This document shows, one piece after another, positions 1,090 through 9,454 of a DNA stretch of 33,913 nt. The stretch is taken from positions 1 through 33,913 of the forward strand of contig CAZUJC010000006.1 of assembly GCA_964620245.1 (NCBI GenBank), read 5' to 3'. Position 1 is the stretch's first letter; each line of letters opens with the position of its first letter. Origin of the DNA: an uncultured Pseudomonadota bacterium (GTDB lineage: Bacteria; Babelota; Babeliae; Babelales; JACPOV01). Under the pieces are notes generated by a model. That model ran no database searches. It was not told the DNA's origin and saw nothing but the letters and a program-made list of their open reading frames with translations. The translations under genes and the position numbers were made by a program.

Positions 1090-3768
1090 ATGACGCAACA
1101 ATTTCCTTATCAACAATCAACTGAAACAGTTGAACAACAATTTAAAACAAAAAGCGCAACTGGTTTGACAACAAAAGAAGCGCAAGAGCGGTTACGGTTT
1201 CACGGACTCAATGAATTGGCACACAAAGCGCCACCTTCAATATTACGTATTTTCTTACGACAGTTTGAAAGCCCACTCATTTATGTTTTGTTAATTGCTG
1301 CCGGTATTATTGTTATTCTTGGCAGTGGTCTTGATGCGCTTATTATTAGCATCATTTTATTTTTTAATGCAATTATTGGTACGGTCCAAGAAGGTCGTAC
1401 ACAAATGTTGCTTGAAAGTTTAAAACACTTTTTAAAATCAGATGCGCTTGTTCTACGCGATAACACTGAACAGATTATTTCTAGCACAAGCATTGTACCT
1501 GGCGATGTTATCATTTTACAACAAGGTGAACGCGTACCAGCCGACGCCCGCTTGATTACTGCACATTTGTTACTTGTTGATGAATCAATGCTCACCGGTG
1601 AAACAATCGGTGTGAGAAAATCTGCTGAAATTATTGATCGTGAAGTACCTATTCATGATCAACAAAACATGGTGTTCAAAGGAACCTACGTTCTTTCAGG
1701 TACCGCCAAAGCACTTGTCACCGCAACAGGAATCGAAACGCAAATAGGCCAAATTGGTTCACTTGCACAAACAATCCGTGAAGAAATTCCACTCAAAAAA
1801 GATTTAGATGTTGTTTCGTGGTGGGTGCTTATTTTTATTGCCGCCTCCTGTACATTTTTATTCATTGTTGGTTGGTGGCATGGGCGATCGATTAACGATT
1901 TATTAATCACACTCAGCGCACTTTTTATTTGCGTTGTCCCGGAAGGATTACCAGTTGTTTTCACGCTCACACTCGTCAATGGTGCGTACCGAATGGCAAA
2001 AGAAAATGTTGTGGTGAAACAACTTCATGCAGCTGAAGGCCTTGGCCGCACAACTACCATTGTCATCGATAAAACAGGTACTCTCACTAAAAATGAAATG
2101 ATGGTTACCTCAATTTATTCTGGCGGCAATCTTTACACCGTAACCGGTCAAGGATATCAACCTAAAGGCACTATCGAACTGGATGGGCAATTACTTTCTT
2201 CACTCAAAGAACACCCAACACTTGATCTCATGGCGCAAGCTGCCTCGTTGTTGAATCGAACCAAAATTGAAATAGACCCACAAACCGGTTTGTTTGCTCT
2301 CAAAGGTGATCCAACCCAGGCAGCTTTGAGTGTTGTTTCACAAAAAGCACGTTATGAACAAGCGCAACTAAACACACAATATAGTTTTGTTAACGAAATT
2401 CCATTTCAAGCTGACTTGCGTTATCAATCAGATTTTTATTTGAAAGACAATAAACTGATTGCTTTTATTGTTGCCGCTCCAGAACATGTGATTACCCATT
2501 CTAAAAATATTACTGCTCAGGATAAAGATGCATTTGAAAAACTCCTTGGGCAAGGCTTGCGTGTTATTGGTGCCGCATATAAAGAGTTTGATCCGCATAC
2601 TGTTTCCACAAAAACAACCCCCGAAGAATTTAAACAATTAATTCAAGATGATTTTATTTTTCTTGGGTTTTTTGGTTTACAAGATACCATTCGATCCGAA
2701 GTTCCCAAAATGGTTAAAGATACGCGAGATGCCGGTTTTCGTGTTGTGATGGCAACTGGTGATCACAAAGATACTGCTTTATTTGTTGCGCGCACGGTTG
2801 GTATTTTTAATCCAGGAGATGCGGTAATTGATGGATCTGAAATCAAAACAATGACCGATTCACAATTGCTTGCCGCATTGCCAACTACTACTGTTTTTTC
2901 ACGTCTTTCGCCAGAATACAAATTGCGGCTGATTGATTTATATCACAAAACAGGTGCAATTGTTGCAATGACTGGTGATGGGGTCAACGACGCACCTTCG
3001 CTCGTGGCAGCAGACATTGGCATCGCTATGGGAATTATTGGCACCGAAGTTGCAAAAGAAGTTGCCGATATTATTTTGCTCGATGATTCTTTTGGAAGTA
3101 TTATCAATGCAATCGCCTATAGCCGCCATATGTTTACCACGCTGCGCCGCGTTATTTTATATTTTTTTGCCACTAATTTAGCAGAATTACTACTCATGCT
3201 CACTGCAGTGCTCATCAACTTTCCCGTTTTGCCACTCGTTGCAGTGCAAATTTTTTGGTTAAACTTGATCACTGATGGATTTTTAAATGTTGCTCTGGCC
3301 CTTGAACCTCAAGAAGACAGTGCACTCAATGCCATAAAAACAAACAAACAGCTATCACTTATTGATAAACGGTTGATGATCAAAACATTTTATTTAGCAT
3401 GTGTCATGGCAATTGGTTCATTCGGTGTATTTTGGTACTATGAATCAATTAACATCACGCTTGCACAAACCATGACACTTGTTACGATGGCACTATTTCA
3501 GTGGATGAATGCGTGGAACTGCCGATCTGAAACACGCACCAATTTTCAGCTGGGTATTGCAAGCAATCGTTGGCTTGTAGCAGCAACTATTTTTGTATTG
3601 ATTCTGCAAATAGCGTTGGTTCATGTACCACTTTTTCAACATATTTTTCACACCATGCCGCTGACTCTTTCACAATGGGCTTTGATTTTTGTTCTGACTA
3701 GCTCAATCCTCATTATTGAAGAAATACGTAAATATTTTTTATCCGCTTTTACGCGTGGTCAACGTTGA
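1090..3768 (+). CDS. P-type cation-transporting ATPase (type II, Ca2+-ATPase-like)
   Basis: DESMLTGE, PEGL, phosphorylation motif DKTGTLT, MATGD, TGDGVND, QIFWLNLITDG; about 10 TM segments. Confidence 0.95.
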   Translation: MTQQFPYQQSTETVEQQFKTKSATGLTTKEAQERLRFHGLNELAHKAPPSILRIFLRQFESPLIYVLLIAAGIIVILGSGLDALIISIILFFNAIIGTVQEGRTQMLLESLKHFLKSDALVLRDNTEQIISSTSIVPGDVIILQQGERVPADARLITAHLLLVDESMLTGETIGVRKSAEIIDREVPIHDQQNMVFKGTYVLSGTAKALVTATGIETQIGQIGSLAQTIREEIPLKKDLDVVSWWVLIFIAASCTFLFIVGWWHGRSINDLLITLSALFICVVPEGLPVVFTLTLVNGAYRMAKENVVVKQLHAAEGLGRTTTIVIDKTGTLTKNEMMVTSIYSGGNLYTVTGQGYQPKGTIELDGQLLSSLKEHPTLDLMAQAASLLNRTKIEIDPQTGLFALKGDPTQAALSVVSQKARYEQAQLNTQYSFVNEIPFQADLRYQSDFYLKDNKLIAFIVAAPEHVITHSKNITAQDKDAFEKLLGQGLRVIGAAYKEFDPHTVSTKTTPEEFKQLIQDDFIFLGFFGLQDTIRSEVPKMVKDTRDAGFRVVMATGDHKDTALFVARTVGIFNPGDAVIDGSEIKTMTDSQLLAALPTTTVFSRLSPEYKLRLIDLYHKTGAIVAMTGDGVNDAPSLVAADIGIAMGIIGTEVAKEVADIILLDDSFGSIINAIAYSRHMFTTLRRVILYFFATNLAELLLMLTAVLINFPVLPLVAVQIFWLNLITDGFLNVALALEPQEDSALNAIKTNKQLSLIDKRLMIKTFYLACVMAIGSFGVFWYYESINITLAQTMTLVTMALFQWMNAWNCRSETRTNFQLGIASNRWLVAATIFVLILQIALVHVPLFQHIFHTMPLTLSQWALIFVLTSSILIIEEIRKYFLSAFTRGQR

Positions 3769-5023: not shown

Positions 5024-5051
5024 TTTCTTTTTTTATATTTCTTCATTCAAT

Positions 5052-5079
5052 TTGAAACCTTCTCCAGATTTGCTATTCT
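5052..5079 (+). promoter_or_regulatory. Putative sigma70 promoter with extended -10 for the WD40 gene
   Basis: TTGAAA (5052-5057), 16-bp spacer, TGcTATTCT (5071-5079). Confidence 0.4.
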
Positions 5080-5130
5080 TTAATTTGAACACACAAATCA
5101 ATGCTGATTTCCACTAAAGAAATGTTTCAA

Positions 5131-6861
5131 ATGAATATACTCTTTTTTCTCATTATTTTTTTTGCACCACTGCTCAATGCAATGGGAAAAAATAATTTCA
5201 AAATTGTATGCGAGAACCATGATGAATTAATTATCAATAAAGAAAAATGGGAACTGCTACGCACAAAATCTGCAACAATCAAAAACATGTTTAAAGATTT
5301 AGAACATTCCAATTGCAGTAACCAATTAGAATTGCCTATTGCAAAAAAAGACATGGAGGCAATTATTTATTGTTTGCCATACTTGCGCACTAATGAAGAA
5401 TTAATTTCTTATCTTAAGACATTGTCTCCGCAAGAAATCGTATCGCATTTCGTTTCACCTCTTTCCGAACCCAAAACAGCACAACATTTGAATTGGGCAA
5501 TGCGTATCAAGTTTTCTGAGAACCCGCATACATTATGCCATGATTTTTTGAAAGAGCATTTGCAAGATCTTCAATCCACAAATAATTTGCACATTCTACA
5601 AAAGATAGATGAATTAAAAACTCAAATTAATTTGTTATCAGTTGATCAGATTGCTTCATTTCTTAATGCATCCGATTTTTTGGAAATTAAAAAATTCAAT
5701 ACAATCGGAACAAAACTTTATGCACAAAAAATAGTAGCATTGGAAGAACTCAAAAAATTCACTCAAGGCAATGCAATACTCCCCTATCTAAATACAAACA
5801 TTGATCGATTAATTGCTAAGAAAATTGTAAAAAATCATCCTAATCTGCTAGCCAATTTATGCAAACACATTCCGGTTCCTAACAAGATACTCACTGGTAA
5901 CACTAGTAATGTTATACCAATTGCATGGAGTCCTGATGGAACAATGCTTGCAGGCGGTTGTTCGGATGGCGCGGTATATTTATGGGATAAAACAACTGCT
6001 AAAGTTATTAACAGAATCATTGGTCATACTGAGCATGTGAATTCAATTGCATGGAGTCCTGATGGCTCCATGATTGCGAGTGGTTCTCAAGATAAGACAA
6101 TTCGGTTATGGGATTCAAAAACTGGTAATCTGTCAAGAATCATTGAGCATAAAGAATACATTCATGATGTTGAATTCTGCCCTGATGGCACAACGCTTGT
6201 AAGCCGCAGTAATTTTAGCTCTCCATGTTTATGGGATTTAAAAACAGGTCACTTCTTAAAGGAACTCGAGTACCATAATTTCGGTTCGTTAATTCACCGG
6301 CAGGAAGAATCATTAAGTTCTGATGGTACGATGAAGGTGCATAGCTCAAATAAAGGTCTCTATTTATCGAATACAAAAACGCATAAATTTACAAAAAAAC
6401 TTCCTGACGACCATTGTTGGTCAGTAGCAATGAGTCCCGATGACAAATCGTTTGCAAGTAGTTCTAATGATACCAAAGTATACGTATGGGATATAAGATT
6501 GTTTAATAAACTGCAGCATTATCTACTGAATGAACTCACAGTGCAGCAAGCTCTTGGATTAATTCATTTCGTACAGCAATGGGCAAAACTTGATATTACC
6601 GACAACCAACTCTTGCAACGTATAACAGCATCACTCGACCATGAGGTGCAAGATATTTTAGTTGAACACTACATTCATACCACACCACACATAAAAATGA
6701 TTAATACGATAAAAAGCTTGTATAAGAAAAATTTAATAAATTCACTTGTTTCTGGAAGCAATGCATCATTTTCTTATCCAGGATACACAAATGGATTGAC
6801 TGAGTTTAAAAAAAATATGCAAATAAGCACAGTGAAAACAGAAGAATCCACAATCGATTAA
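5131..6861 (+). CDS. Secreted Skp1/BTB-like domain + WD40 repeat protein
   Basis: Signal peptide MNILFFLIIFFAPLLNA (alternative start 5101). Skp1-like segments SATIKNMFKDLE and VDQIASFLNASDFLEIKKF. About 5 WD40 repeats (GHTEHVNSIAWSPDG...SGSQDKTIRLWD). Confidence 0.8.
   Translation: MNILFFLIIFFAPLLNAMGKNNFKIVCENHDELIINKEKWELLRTKSATIKNMFKDLEHSNCSNQLELPIAKKDMEAIIYCLPYLRTNEELISYLKTLSPQEIVSHFVSPLSEPKTAQHLNWAMRIKFSENPHTLCHDFLKEHLQDLQSTNNLHILQKIDELKTQINLLSVDQIASFLNASDFLEIKKFNTIGTKLYAQKIVALEELKKFTQGNAILPYLNTNIDRLIAKKIVKNHPNLLANLCKHIPVPNKILTGNTSNVIPIAWSPDGTMLAGGCSDGAVYLWDKTTAKVINRIIGHTEHVNSIAWSPDGSMIASGSQDKTIRLWDSKTGNLSRIIEHKEYIHDVEFCPDGTTLVSRSNFSSPCLWDLKTGHFLKELEYHNFGSLIHRQEESLSSDGTMKVHSSNKGLYLSNTKTHKFTKKLPDDHCWSVAMSPDDKSFASSSNDTKVYVWDIRLFNKLQHYLLNELTVQQALGLIHFVQQWAKLDITDNQLLQRITASLDHEVQDILVEHYIHTTPHIKMINTIKSLYKKNLINSLVSGSNASFSYPGYTNGLTEFKKNMQISTVKTEESTID
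5918..6065 (+). repeat. 22-bp exact direct repeat inside adjacent WD40 repeats
   Basis: CAATTGCATGGAGTCCTGATGG at 5918-5939 and 6044-6065, 126 bp (42 codons) apart. Confidence 0.85.
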
Positions 6862-6862
6862 T

Positions 6863-9454
6863 TTATTGATTTTCAATCAACGTTTTTAATTGATTCATCA
6901 ACTTATGCGGTTCAACAGCAGGTCCGCCACCTTGCAGCAAATCTGCTTTACCACCACCGAAAAGCCCAAAATTTGTTTTAAGCCATGTGCTCAATTCTTT
7001 TGAGTTGATGTTCGTTTTAATTGTTGGTGACAACAATGTAACAAATGAAGATTGATTACCGTTCACATTGAGCACAAAATAAAAACCTGGTTGCGTTTTT
7101 GCAAGCTCTTGCGCAATGTCACGCAATTCATCCACCGAATAATCGGTAAACGATAAAAAGAGAAATGGCACATCATTGATTTTTTCAATGCGTGAACGCC
7201 ATTGTGGCAGCTGGAAATGCCAGAGATTTTTTTTGAGTTGTCGAATGGTGTCATGTGCTGTTTTGAGTTGTTCACGTTGTTTTGTAACTGCCTGTTCAAC
7301 GTGATCAACTGGCACTTTAAAATCGGTGCTTAATTGTTTCATTGTTGCATAATTGTGTTGAAACAGTTCGATCGCTTGAGGTCCAGTAAGCGCAACAATT
7401 CGTTTTTGCCCTGCTGACAGTGCCGTAAGTTCGGTAATTTTAAAACAACCAATATCGCCCGTTGCACGAACATGAGTGCCTCCGCACAGTTCAGCAGAAA
7501 AACCGGGCACATCAACAACGCGTACTTTTTCTGGATTATATTTTTCACCAAAAATTGCCATCACGCCACGTTCAGTTGCTGCTTTGTAACTTGTTTGCGT
7601 GGTACTGACCGGAATATTTTCACGAATTTTTTCATTAACCAGATCTTCGATCTGTTTTATTTGTTCGTTGCTCACCAGTTTGTGGTACGTAAAATCAAAA
7701 CGTAAATAATCGGGTGCTACCAGCGAACCTGCTTGACGCACTTCGTTGCCCAGAATTTTGATTAACGCTGCTTGCAGCAAATGGGTCGCGGTGTGATTGT
7801 ACATGGTGTTTAAACGCAACTGTTTATCAACCGTGCACACAACTTCGTCACCAATTTTAAGCGCTACTGGTGCTTTGATTTGTGCAGCAATTATTTCATT
7901 GAATCGTTTCAATTTTAATACGGGAACTGTAGTGCCCTGAATTTCGATTGAACCTTGATCACTGATTTGGCCACCACGTTCAACATAAAATGGCGTTTGA
8001 GCCGTAATTACCCAGCACTCAATGCCTGCTTTAATTTCTTTTACTTCTTGATTATTTTCAACAAGCGCAACAATGTTGGTTTTTGTTTGCATTTCATCGT
8101 AACCGGTAAATACCGATTTTATCGATTCAGCTAAGTGCACATCGTGCGTTTGTTCTTCTTTTTTTCCTGATCGTTCTCGTTGCACATTCATTTCTTGCTC
8201 AAAACCAGGAATATCAACTTCAAATCCACGTTCATGCGCAATAATGCGCGTAATTTCGAGTGGGAAACCGTAGGTGTCATAGAGTTTGAATGCAAACGAA
8301 CCGGAGACCGTATCTTTATTTTCTTTAAAATATTTTTCTAAAATGAGTTGGCCTTGCACCAAGTTATTTGCAAATTTTTCAACTTCGCTCGTGAGCAGTG
8401 CAACAATGCGTTCGCGATGTTTTTGCAATTCAGGATACATAGTTCCCATGTCTTCAATGACTGCATCAACAAGCTGCGGAAAAATAGGCTCAGGAGTTAA
8501 TTTTTTTGAAAAGAGTGCAGCACGACGAATCACTTTACGCAGTACATAACCACGCCCTTCATTTGACGGTGTCGCACCATCGGCAATTAAAAAAGTCGAT
8601 GCACGAATATGATCAGCAAGCACATGAAATGCTGCGCGGTTCTCTTTATTTTCTTTTGCATAGATGCGATTGGTTAATTGTTCAATTCGTTTAATCACAT
8701 GCGCAAAAACATCGGTTTCAAAAACGTTGTTTTTTCCTTCAACAAGGAGCGCTAATCGTTCAAGGCCCATGCCGGTATCAACACCAACCGCTTTGAGCGG
8801 CTTATCGGTGCCATCTGGTTGGCGATCATATTGCATGAACACCAAATTCCACACTTCTAAATAGCGGTCGCATGAACACCCAGGAGCGCAGGTTGGTTTA
8901 CCACAACCGTAAGTAGCACCACGATCAATGTAAATTTCAGAACACGGGCCACACGGACCTGTTTCACCCATTTGCCAGAAATTGTCAGCTTCACCAAGGC
9001 GATGAATTCGTTCTTTAGGCAACCCAATTTCTTTGTTCCAAATATCAAACGATTCATCATCTTTATAAAAAACTGAAGCGTGCATTACTTCAGGCTTAAA
9101 TTTCATCGCATCGGTTAAAAATTGCCATGCAAACAAAATCGCTTCTTTTTTAAAATAGTCACCAAATGAAAAATTGCCCATCATTTCAAAAAAAGTCAGA
9201 TGGCGCGCCGTAAAACCAACATTATCAAGATCGTTATGTTTGCCACCTGCGCGCATACATTTTTGAATGCTCACCGCTCGCTTGTAGCTTCGTGTTTCTT
9301 TACCCAAAAAAACATCTTTAAATTGGTTCATGCCCGCATTGGTGAATAGAATGGTAGGATCTTGTGCAGGAATAAGTGATGAACTTGCCACTTTTTCATG
9401 GCCACGGCTCGTAAAAAAATCGAAAAATTTCTGACGAATTTCAAGCGATTTCAT
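6863..9454 (-). CDS. alaS: Alanine--tRNA ligase
   Basis: LFTNAGMNQFK, HLTFFEMMGNFSFGDYFK, GPCGPCSE, DTGMGLERL, editing motifs HTATH and ELCGGTH, C-Ala domain. Confidence 0.99.
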   Translation of the reverse strand: MKSLEIRQKFFDFFTSRGHEKVASSSLIPAQDPTILFTNAGMNQFKDVFLGKETRSYKRAVSIQKCMRAGGKHNDLDNVGFTARHLTFFEMMGNFSFGDYFKKEAILFAWQFLTDAMKFKPEVMHASVFYKDDESFDIWNKEIGLPKERIHRLGEADNFWQMGETGPCGPCSEIYIDRGATYGCGKPTCAPGCSCDRYLEVWNLVFMQYDRQPDGTDKPLKAVGVDTGMGLERLALLVEGKNNVFETDVFAHVIKRIEQLTNRIYAKENKENRAAFHVLADHIRASTFLIADGATPSNEGRGYVLRKVIRRAALFSKKLTPEPIFPQLVDAVIEDMGTMYPELQKHRERIVALLTSEVEKFANNLVQGQLILEKYFKENKDTVSGSFAFKLYDTYGFPLEITRIIAHERGFEVDIPGFEQEMNVQRERSGKKEEQTHDVHLAESIKSVFTGYDEMQTKTNIVALVENNQEVKEIKAGIECWVITAQTPFYVERGGQISDQGSIEIQGTTVPVLKLKRFNEIIAAQIKAPVALKIGDEVVCTVDKQLRLNTMYNHTATHLLQAALIKILGNEVRQAGSLVAPDYLRFDFTYHKLVSNEQIKQIEDLVNEKIRENIPVSTTQTSYKAATERGVMAIFGEKYNPEKVRVVDVPGFSAELCGGTHVRATGDIGCFKITELTALSAGQKRIVALTGPQAIELFQHNYATMKQLSTDFKVPVDHVEQAVTKQREQLKTAHDTIRQLKKNLWHFQLPQWRSRIEKINDVPFLFLSFTDYSVDELRDIAQELAKTQPGFYFVLNVNGNQSSFVTLLSPTIKTNINSKELSTWLKTNFGLFGGGKADLLQGGGPAVEPHKLMNQLKTLIENQ

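Follow-up and report, generated by a model that had tools for sequence, protein, structure and literature searches.

What kind of protein joins a Skp1-like domain to WD40 repeats in a bacterium, and what might it do? The question is raised by an open reading frame on the forward strand of contig CAZUJC010000006.1 (assembly GCA_964620245.1), from an uncultured member of the Babeliales (Dependentiae). We analysed positions 1 to 33,913 of this contig, the whole stretch being referred to here as the window. An initial annotation, made from the sequence alone, had read the frame at 5131..6861 as a secreted fusion of a Skp1-like module with WD40 repeats, and as a possible single-chain mimic of the adaptor of an SCF (Skp1-cullin-F-box) ubiquitin ligase. 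Intracellular bacteria hijack host cullin ligases with proteins that contain an F-box or a U-box or, in the case of Chlamydiae, a BTB domain; in amoeba hosts, Legionella F-box effectors such as AnkB imitate SCF substrate receptors.

The N-terminal domain of the encoded protein is a true Skp1 homologue, not a generic BTB or Elongin C domain, and the 576-residue chain consists of a signal-like N-terminus, this Skp1-like domain, a five-blade WD40 propeller and a conserved helical tail. The frame can begin at either of two in-frame ATGs (5101/5131..6861, forward strand), giving 586 or 576 residues; residue numbers are counted from the ATG at 5131. The strings in which the initial annotation had seen Skp1 lie where it placed them, FKIVCENHDELII from residue 23 (nucleotide 5197) and LSVDQIASFLNASDFLEIKKF from residue 169 (nucleotide 5635). 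The parts of the gene are as follows.

5101..5181, forward strand: start region and signal-like N-terminus (residues 1-17), with ATGs at 5101 and 5131 and the hydrophobic core ILFFLIIFFAPLL, then LNA/MG
5194..5862, forward strand: Skp1-like domain, residues 22-244, supported by profile A2, hhalign and the structure model
5386..5631, forward strand: insertion of about 80 helical residues (86-167) that follows helix A3, seen in alignments A1 and A2, with five predicted helices
5794..5832, forward strand: helix TNIDRLIAKKIVK, residues 222-234, the "F-box start" of the initial annotation and a diverged form of the family motif LPxEIxxxIAxxI
5878..6495, forward strand: WD40 beta-propeller of five blades, residues 250-455, from Pfam WD40, model strands and VIA-align
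6496..6669, forward strand: conserved helical tail, residues 456-513, from alignments A3 and A4, with four helices at a predicted local distance difference test score (pLDDT) of about 90
6670..6861, forward strand: low-confidence C-terminal extension, residues 514-576, and stop codon, shared in part with relative P0007

We propose that this strain-variable gene of a protist parasite encodes an exported, eukaryote-derived protein, in which a diverged but complete Skp1 module is fused directly to a small WD40 propeller. The C-terminal helical tail is predicted to fold back on the last helices of the Skp1 module, where real Skp1 receives the F-box, and the whole chain would thereby resemble a pre-assembled substrate receptor made of Skp1 and an F-box protein. 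Its role would most likely lie in the host cell. There the propeller may bind a host protein while the Skp1 module docks on a host Cul1-type cullin, and the target would be ubiquitinated, or at least held in a Skp1-like scaffold. To this host-directed, single-chain receptor, an idea that belongs to the family and is here applied to one gene, we give about an even chance; cullin binding and ubiquitination are presumed in it.

A diverged Skp1 domain fused to a WD40 propeller

The assignment to Skp1 comes from comparing the family rather than the single protein. We built a profile (A2) from the N-terminal domains of 11 relatives within the genus, comprising paralogues and genus-mates of the same layout, and its top 28 matches in the PDB were all Skp1, at E 2e-10 to 3e-4. 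The next matches were yeast Skp1 (0.14), a poxvirus BTB-kelch protein (0.19) and Elongin C (0.49-1.9). A second profile (A5), drawn from 12 canonical Skp1-like domains of other Dependentiae genera, reached Skp1 at E 7.4e-27 (6v88_A) and human Skp1 at about 3e-25, with Elongin C at about 1e-10. When the two profiles were aligned with hhalign, they matched at a probability of 99.4 and E 6.7e-22 over 137 columns. Since A2 is thus linked to A5, and A5 matches Skp1, the window domain is a diverged member of a clearly Skp1-derived family. The Skp1 motifs S-x-T-I-K-x-M and (D/N)-(Y/F)-L-D are strongly conserved and retained family-wide.

This family reaches well beyond the window. With A2, matches were obtained in 54 of 261 Dependentiae genomes, spread over 36 of 145 genera; a single genome has as many as 12, and tandem arrangements are common. 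As these genomes measure about 1 Mb, the parasites appear to invest heavily in the family. Counting paralogues had been proposed as a check, and the window's own genome holds seven family matches. A small tandem array of two adjacent members on the same strand, with frames of 674 and 564 residues, was seen in one genome (G000, contig C29, 1398-3708). Our sample from other genera comprised 22 frames from 25 loci, as L037, L041 and L044 had no frame of the expected size; L061, one of 20 regions taken, gave a gatB-like frame only and was dropped. The N-terminal pieces of 14 of these 22 proteins pass the gathering score of the Pfam model Skp1_POZ (PF03931; best 66.6 and 64.6 bits), and one more matches it at E 0.006. 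Within the genus, one relative scores 19.6 bits against the cut-off of 21.9, and the window protein alone has no match to this model. The fused partners in other genera are mostly WD40, with leucine-rich repeats (LRR) in L038 and L039 and ankyrin repeats in L036, all of them target-binding modules that eukaryotic F-box proteins use as well. Some family members (L026, L032, L052, L055, L057, L059 and L060) carry two tandem Skp1-like modules ahead of the propeller.

Structure prediction agrees with the profiles. An AlphaFold2 model of residues 19-250 (pLDDT 80.9, predicted TM-score, pTM, 0.73) contains a BTB/POZ core made of a three-strand sheet and helices, followed by equivalents of Skp1 helices H5-H8 and one extra helix. 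Compared by VIA-align with 48,161 representative chains, its best three matches are all Skp1: Arabidopsis ASK1 (Z 10.9, rmsd 4.0, 133 residues aligned), human Skp1 (Z 9.7, 3.4, 114) and yeast Skp1 (Z 9.6, 4.3, 126), with the best BTB chain at Z 9.0 and Elongin C at Z 7.2. Helices fill the H5-H8 positions and the structural alignment extends to ASK1 residue 150, although the signature of the Skp1 C-terminal model PF01466 is absent. In the viral library BFVD, giant-virus Skp1 proteins rank first, with weak E-values (none at or below 0.001 by Foldseek), and the protein atlas entry of a canonical relative superposes on eukaryotic Skp1 with a TM-score of 0.72. A BTB adaptor of the Cul3 type was considered and rejected: the window protein has no match to Pfam BTB (PF00651), the best BTB protein found by A2 stands at 0.19 against 2e-10 for Skp1, and BTB folds rank under Skp1.

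Four results speak against the Skp1 assignment. First, residues 1-250 taken singly reach none of the Pfam models for Skp1, BTB or Elongin C and no such PDB chain, so that the likeness claimed by the initial annotation was, on that basis, indistinguishable from chance. Second, Foldseek against the PDB gave no match at E 0.001 or below and placed the BTB protein SPOP on top (E 8.9e-3); Skp1 chains appear there at a probability of 0.99-1.00 and a target TM-score of 0.53-0.59. Third, the VIA-align gap between Skp1 and BTB is less than 2 Z units, and the chains ranked second and third score level with BTB chains; the fold by itself therefore says "BTB superfamily, nearest Skp1", and it is the sequence profiles that pick out Skp1. 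Fourth, PF01466 is unmatched by the window protein and by all 22 relatives from other genera. Sequence searches that started from the window protein found few relatives: a word-index search returned the window protein alone, and an exhaustive search of representative proteins returned three, one being a near-identical fragment and two being relatives. Two further word-index searches, started from a canonical relative, brought no useful matches. In the comparison with Skp1, Elongin C and BTB, then, Skp1 comes first by profile and by VIA-align, Foldseek being weak with SPOP on top, and the Skp1-like domain is borne out at the level of the family (A2 to Skp1 at 2e-10, A2 to A5 at E 6.7e-22, best folds Skp1).

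The protein shares with eukaryotic Skp1 (1LDK chain D, 6V88, 9O4K chain D) the homologous BTB/POZ core with its S-x-T-I-K-x-M-x-x-D and (D/N)-(Y/F)-L-(D/E)-I motifs, a variable insertion after A3 and the H5-H8 equivalents. Unlike eukaryotic Skp1, it has a signal-like N-terminus, a propeller, a tail and an insertion of 80 residues, and it lacks both a PF01466 match and the PxPN motif.

Behind the Skp1-like domain, the roughly five WD40 repeats counted in the initial annotation are confirmed. Searched as a whole, the protein matches beta-propeller families only, with Pfam WD40 (PF00400) at E 2.1e-29 in three stretches together with many other propeller families over residues ~250-465. A full-length AlphaFold2 model, made from an alignment of 23 relatives (A3, which excludes the tandem-domain proteins L052, L055, L057, L059 and L060 as well as L058), has a mean pLDDT of 82.0 and a pTM of 0.73, falling below pLDDT 50 over residues 534-576. 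It places 20 strands between residues 251 and 454, mostly above pLDDT 90, which corresponds to five blades. With this model VIA-align retrieved 2ymu_B (Z 25.0, rmsd 2.1, 207 aligned), WDR5 (Z 24.1) and beta-TrCP1 (1p22_A, Z 20.0); the structure search gave propellers only and is silent on the arrangement of the domains. Relatives such as P0006 have seven repeats by eye, and the window copy has a shortened propeller. The propeller matches seven-blade propellers at low rmsd (2.0-2.5); given this, the modelled five-blade ring may be open. The Pfam match and the presence of both parts in the full-length model uphold the claim that a Skp1 module and WD40 repeats stand in a single chain.

The helix before the propeller and the tail behind it

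The initial annotation had seen a weak F-box start in L.TNIDRLIAKKI. The conserved helix is real, but no F-box model matches it, and in the alignments it occupies the H8 position of Skp1. Residues 220-232, L-N-T-N-I-D-R-L-I-A-K-K-I, are the version of the family motif found in this protein, and in the hhalign alignment of A2 with A5 the TNIDRLIAKKIVK helix stands opposite LPLDILKLLVQKI of a canonical relative. It comes after the equivalents of H5 (NYLDI), H6 and H7, and replaces the last helix of Skp1, which begins T-P-E-E-E. Most simply, the helix can be read as the H8 of Skp1 itself and not as an F-box, because of its position in the profile and structure alignments and because no F-box model matches the window protein or its relatives. 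With PF00646 and PF12937, and E-values up to 10 admitted, no F-box was found in the first 250 residues, in the last 116 or in the tails; the 22 relatives from other genera had none at E 0.01 or below. The F-box reading of residues 220-234 was rejected on both counts.

Two motif stretches mark the tail behind the propeller, L-(S/T)-x-x-Q-x-L-x-L first and F-x-x-L-(D/P)-x-x-x-K-x-L-L further on. The genus conserves this tail, with Q473 almost unchanged throughout (A3, A4), and it can be recognised by eye in several other genera. The profile of the tail (A4) has its best PDB match at E 0.31 and meets no recurrent Pfam family. The form F-x-x-L-P-x-x-x-K-x-L-L may resemble a Cul-box. Reading the tail as a SOCS-box or an F-box is speculative, as sequence searches of the PDB and Pfam gave it no support.

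When the Skp1-like domain and the tail were folded as two chains, the interface score (ipSAE) was 0.71 (median of three runs), against 0.00 for the best of three controls. This mark is attained by 116 of 157 solved complexes and by 2 of 215 mismatched pairs, a calibration that holds roughly here, own alignments having been used. Contacts agree to at least 84% between runs and the partner pLDDT is at least 69; the tool's verdict is that the result supports binding and does not show it. The predicted interface joins residues 201-248 with 457-481, 492-495 and 506-513, with the tightest pairs between 225-234 (DRLIAKKIVK) and 469-475 (LTVQQAL). The two most conserved motifs outside the Skp1 ones are thus predicted to pack against each other within the molecule. 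By alignment, and not by superposed coordinates, the tail would cover the H7/H8 end of the Skp1 module, which is part of the F-box-binding surface, and it may stand in for the F-box.

These predictions bear on whether the module might instead act as a free Skp1 that captures host F-box proteins. We consider such a competitor very improbable: it would suit the homology to Skp1 and a fold alignment that covers Skp1 residues 4-150, but the tail of the same chain is predicted to lie over the counterpart of H7/H8, PF01466 finds no match, and the fused propeller already supplies a receptor.

The receptor that we propose in place of such a competitor resembles the F-box/WD40 proteins that sit on Skp1 (beta-TrCP1-Skp1, 1P22; Fbw7; Cdc4) in having both halves, a Skp1 module and a WD40 propeller. 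It differs from them in being one chain instead of two and in containing no F-box by any model, and the helical element predicted to contact the end of Skp1 stands after the propeller, not before it.

Export, cullin contact and a variable locus

To act in a host, the protein would have to leave the bacterium. The signal peptide claimed by the initial annotation is plausible in so far as a signal-like N-terminus is present, a basic residue followed by a 12-residue hydrophobic core (best Kyte-Doolittle mean 3.02) and then LNA/MG; the call itself comes from our own basic-then-hydrophobic heuristic and not from a trained predictor. By the same heuristic, a hydrophobic N-terminus is seen in all 24 N-terminally complete genus relatives and in all 22 proteins from other genera (46/46). 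A-M-E or A-M-D very commonly stands directly after the hydrophobic core in these 46 proteins (for example LNA/ME, LQA/ME and VRA/ME), and may mark a lineage-typical signal-peptidase site. One Dependentiae isolate is reported to have signal peptides on 44% of its coding sequences, whose products were proposed to be host effectors; as to a way into the host, just a Sec system, abundant signal peptides and budding vesicles are reported for it (Deeg 2019, PMC6561590). Passage beyond the bacterial envelope and into the host cytosol would have to be assumed for the window protein.

The protein could also remain at the envelope or surface, with the Skp1/BTB fold reused as a scaffold or oligomerisation module that has no link to ubiquitin. 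A visible signal of the Sec type only, and the fact that the F-box-binding half of Skp1 goes unrecognised by PF01466, would fit such a role. We nonetheless hold it to be unlikely, as Skp1 elsewhere is a eukaryotic or giant-virus protein, the WD40, LRR and ankyrin partners match those of F-box proteins, and no anchor, barrel or lipobox was seen when the sequence of the window protein was judged by eye.

In Skp1, strand B3 bears a distinctive PxPN motif used for contact with Cul1, variable insertions occur after A3, and two additional C-terminal helices bind the F-box (Stogios 2005, PMC1257465). A literature search for listed Skp1 residues in contact with Cul1 yielded this PxPN statement and no other. 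The insertion in the window protein falls at the same site as the variable insertion of Skp1 proteins; its ~80 helical residues (86-167) occur in no aligned relative, and the block is modelled at pLDDT 58-81. The initial annotation had named a cullin-contacting surface that is not conserved as a sign against its reading; in the window copy, B3 PxPN reads LELPI and the H5 "NY" reads "DF". We take this "NY", residues N108 and Y109 of human Skp1, to touch Cul1. A regular-expression search for the full PxPN motif succeeded in 5 of the 22 proteins from other genera and in none of the 28 from the genus. PIPLPN or something near it is retained by canonical Dependentiae members, and the second domain of L032 adds one by eye, which suggests selection on contacts of the Skp1 type, at least in the ancestor of the family.

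The same changes would suit a decoy or inhibitor, which in the host would sequester a protein on its propeller or block the adaptor site of a cullin without passing on ubiquitin. The degenerate PxPN of the genus (0/28), a propeller reduced to five blades and an insertion of 80 residues within the Skp1 core all lean that way. We judge a decoy improbable, though, because S-x-T-I-K-x-M and (D/N)-(Y/F)-L-D are kept across the family and because the PIPLPN of canonical relatives points to the selection just described.

The locus itself is variable. Housekeeping genes flank the gene: upstream lie a P-type ATPase, an OmpH-like frame and pth, and alaS converges from downstream with one base between the stop codons. 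The P-type ATPase (1090-3768) has as its best NCBIfam models the eukaryote-type PMR1 and SERCA calcium pumps, below their cut-offs (531 versus 798 bits). What stands in the spacer between pth and alaS (window 5024-6875; loci L071-L074) differs from one species of the genus to the next: nothing in G004, a gene of 300 residues in G001, a family-like gene on the other strand in G003 and the Skp1-WD40 gene in the window. The nearest species, with 86% identity in pth, has 120 bases and no gene between pth and the alaS that faces it; of the two other species with a different cargo, one has a gene with a tail like that of the Skp1-WD40 family. Contigs from an independent freshwater run connect 5023 with 6876 and 5115 with 6905, the gene being absent there, and lower-depth contigs of that run cover it. 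A 40.7-kb contig from another run has the gene at ~96% identity. The variable presence at this spot, together with the run contigs, indicates an accessory gene that changes fast, a behaviour common among effector genes. In the 40.7-kb contig, otherwise ~96% identical, the segment 5194-5319, which encodes strands B1-B2 and the S-x-T-I-K helix, is swapped for 133 unlike letters, suggesting a local hypervariable or recombined segment.

The rest of the genome bears on what the protein could do alone. In 1.04 Mb (94% complete), we found no match to Cullin, F-box-like (PF12937) or U-box models, and a genome-wide search with PF00646 gave one sub-threshold match of 17.7 bits in a frame with three stops. 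There is thus no cullin, U-box or credible F-box gene among those found, and any ligase activity would need host parts.

Several of these results tell against a working receptor in the host. The altered PxPN and "NY" positions and the absence of PxPN from the genus proteins concern its contact with a cullin. With five blades where relatives have seven, the window copy may be decaying. The two chains whose interface was predicted come from one polypeptide, so that the result speaks for packing, and F-box mimicry does not follow from it. Having a Sec signal is not enough to bring a protein into the host cytosol, and no RNA run was found to contain the gene. Among these, it is the lost PxPN, the reduced number of blades and the step from Sec export to the host cytosol that weaken the reading as a host-directed receptor and leave it at the even chance given above.

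The family compared with known cullin-ligase mimics

Mimicry of cullin-ligase adaptors by parasites is known; a Skp1 adaptor that is itself fused to a target-binding domain would be a variant of it. Effectors of the AnkB type supply the F-box and borrow the Skp1 of the host, whereas the window bacterium supplies the Skp1 part and has no detectable F-box. Among bacterial precedents, the BTB-LRR family of Protochlamydia comes closest. The account of Domman 2014 (PMC4209131) presents Parachlamydiaceae as the only prokaryotes then known to have BTB domains, and proposes that the PEX1 proteins of amoeba-associated Protochlamydia hijack host cullin ligases. As described there, PEX1 is likewise an expanded, fast-evolving family with an N-terminal adaptor of the BTB fold and C-terminal repeats. 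It differs in combining a BTB domain of the Cul3 type with LRR and type III signals, while the Dependentiae family, from another phylum, combines a domain of the Skp1 type mostly with WD40 and with signals of the Sec type.

Viruses offer two further comparisons. Vaccinia A55 (6I2M) is also a parasite-encoded cullin-adaptor fold joined to a propeller in a single chain, but it is of the BTB type and binds Cul3. The Skp1 proteins of giant viruses (Pandoravirus, Fadolivirus; BFVD) are parasite-encoded as well, but they are short and stand alone (154-254 residues), not fusions. In the Dependentiae literature, a study of TM6 genomes included WD40 and F-box in the domains for which it screened, and its main text does not contain "Skp1" or "BTB" (Yeoh 2016, PMC4776705). 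Our search, with supplements and subscription journals outside it, found no paper that links Dependentiae to Skp1 or BTB or that describes bacterial Skp1-like effectors of this kind.

For the family as a whole, a bolder idea can be put forward tentatively, with less than an even chance of being right: that Dependentiae have made of Skp1 a secreted family of self-contained receptors for Cul1-type ligases (CRL1), in which the tail replaces the F-box and each member plugs into host Cul1 and retargets it. If the receptor reading is true, the bacterium would supply the Skp1 adaptor already joined to a target-binding domain, a different solution to the problem of hijacking and a route unlike that of known bacterial F-box, U-box, NEL and BTB effectors. 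The protein would then be a natural SCF receptor in one chain, which would make it interesting for engineered protein degradation. In a phylum for which functional data are very scarce, the family also provides candidate effectors that can be put to the test.

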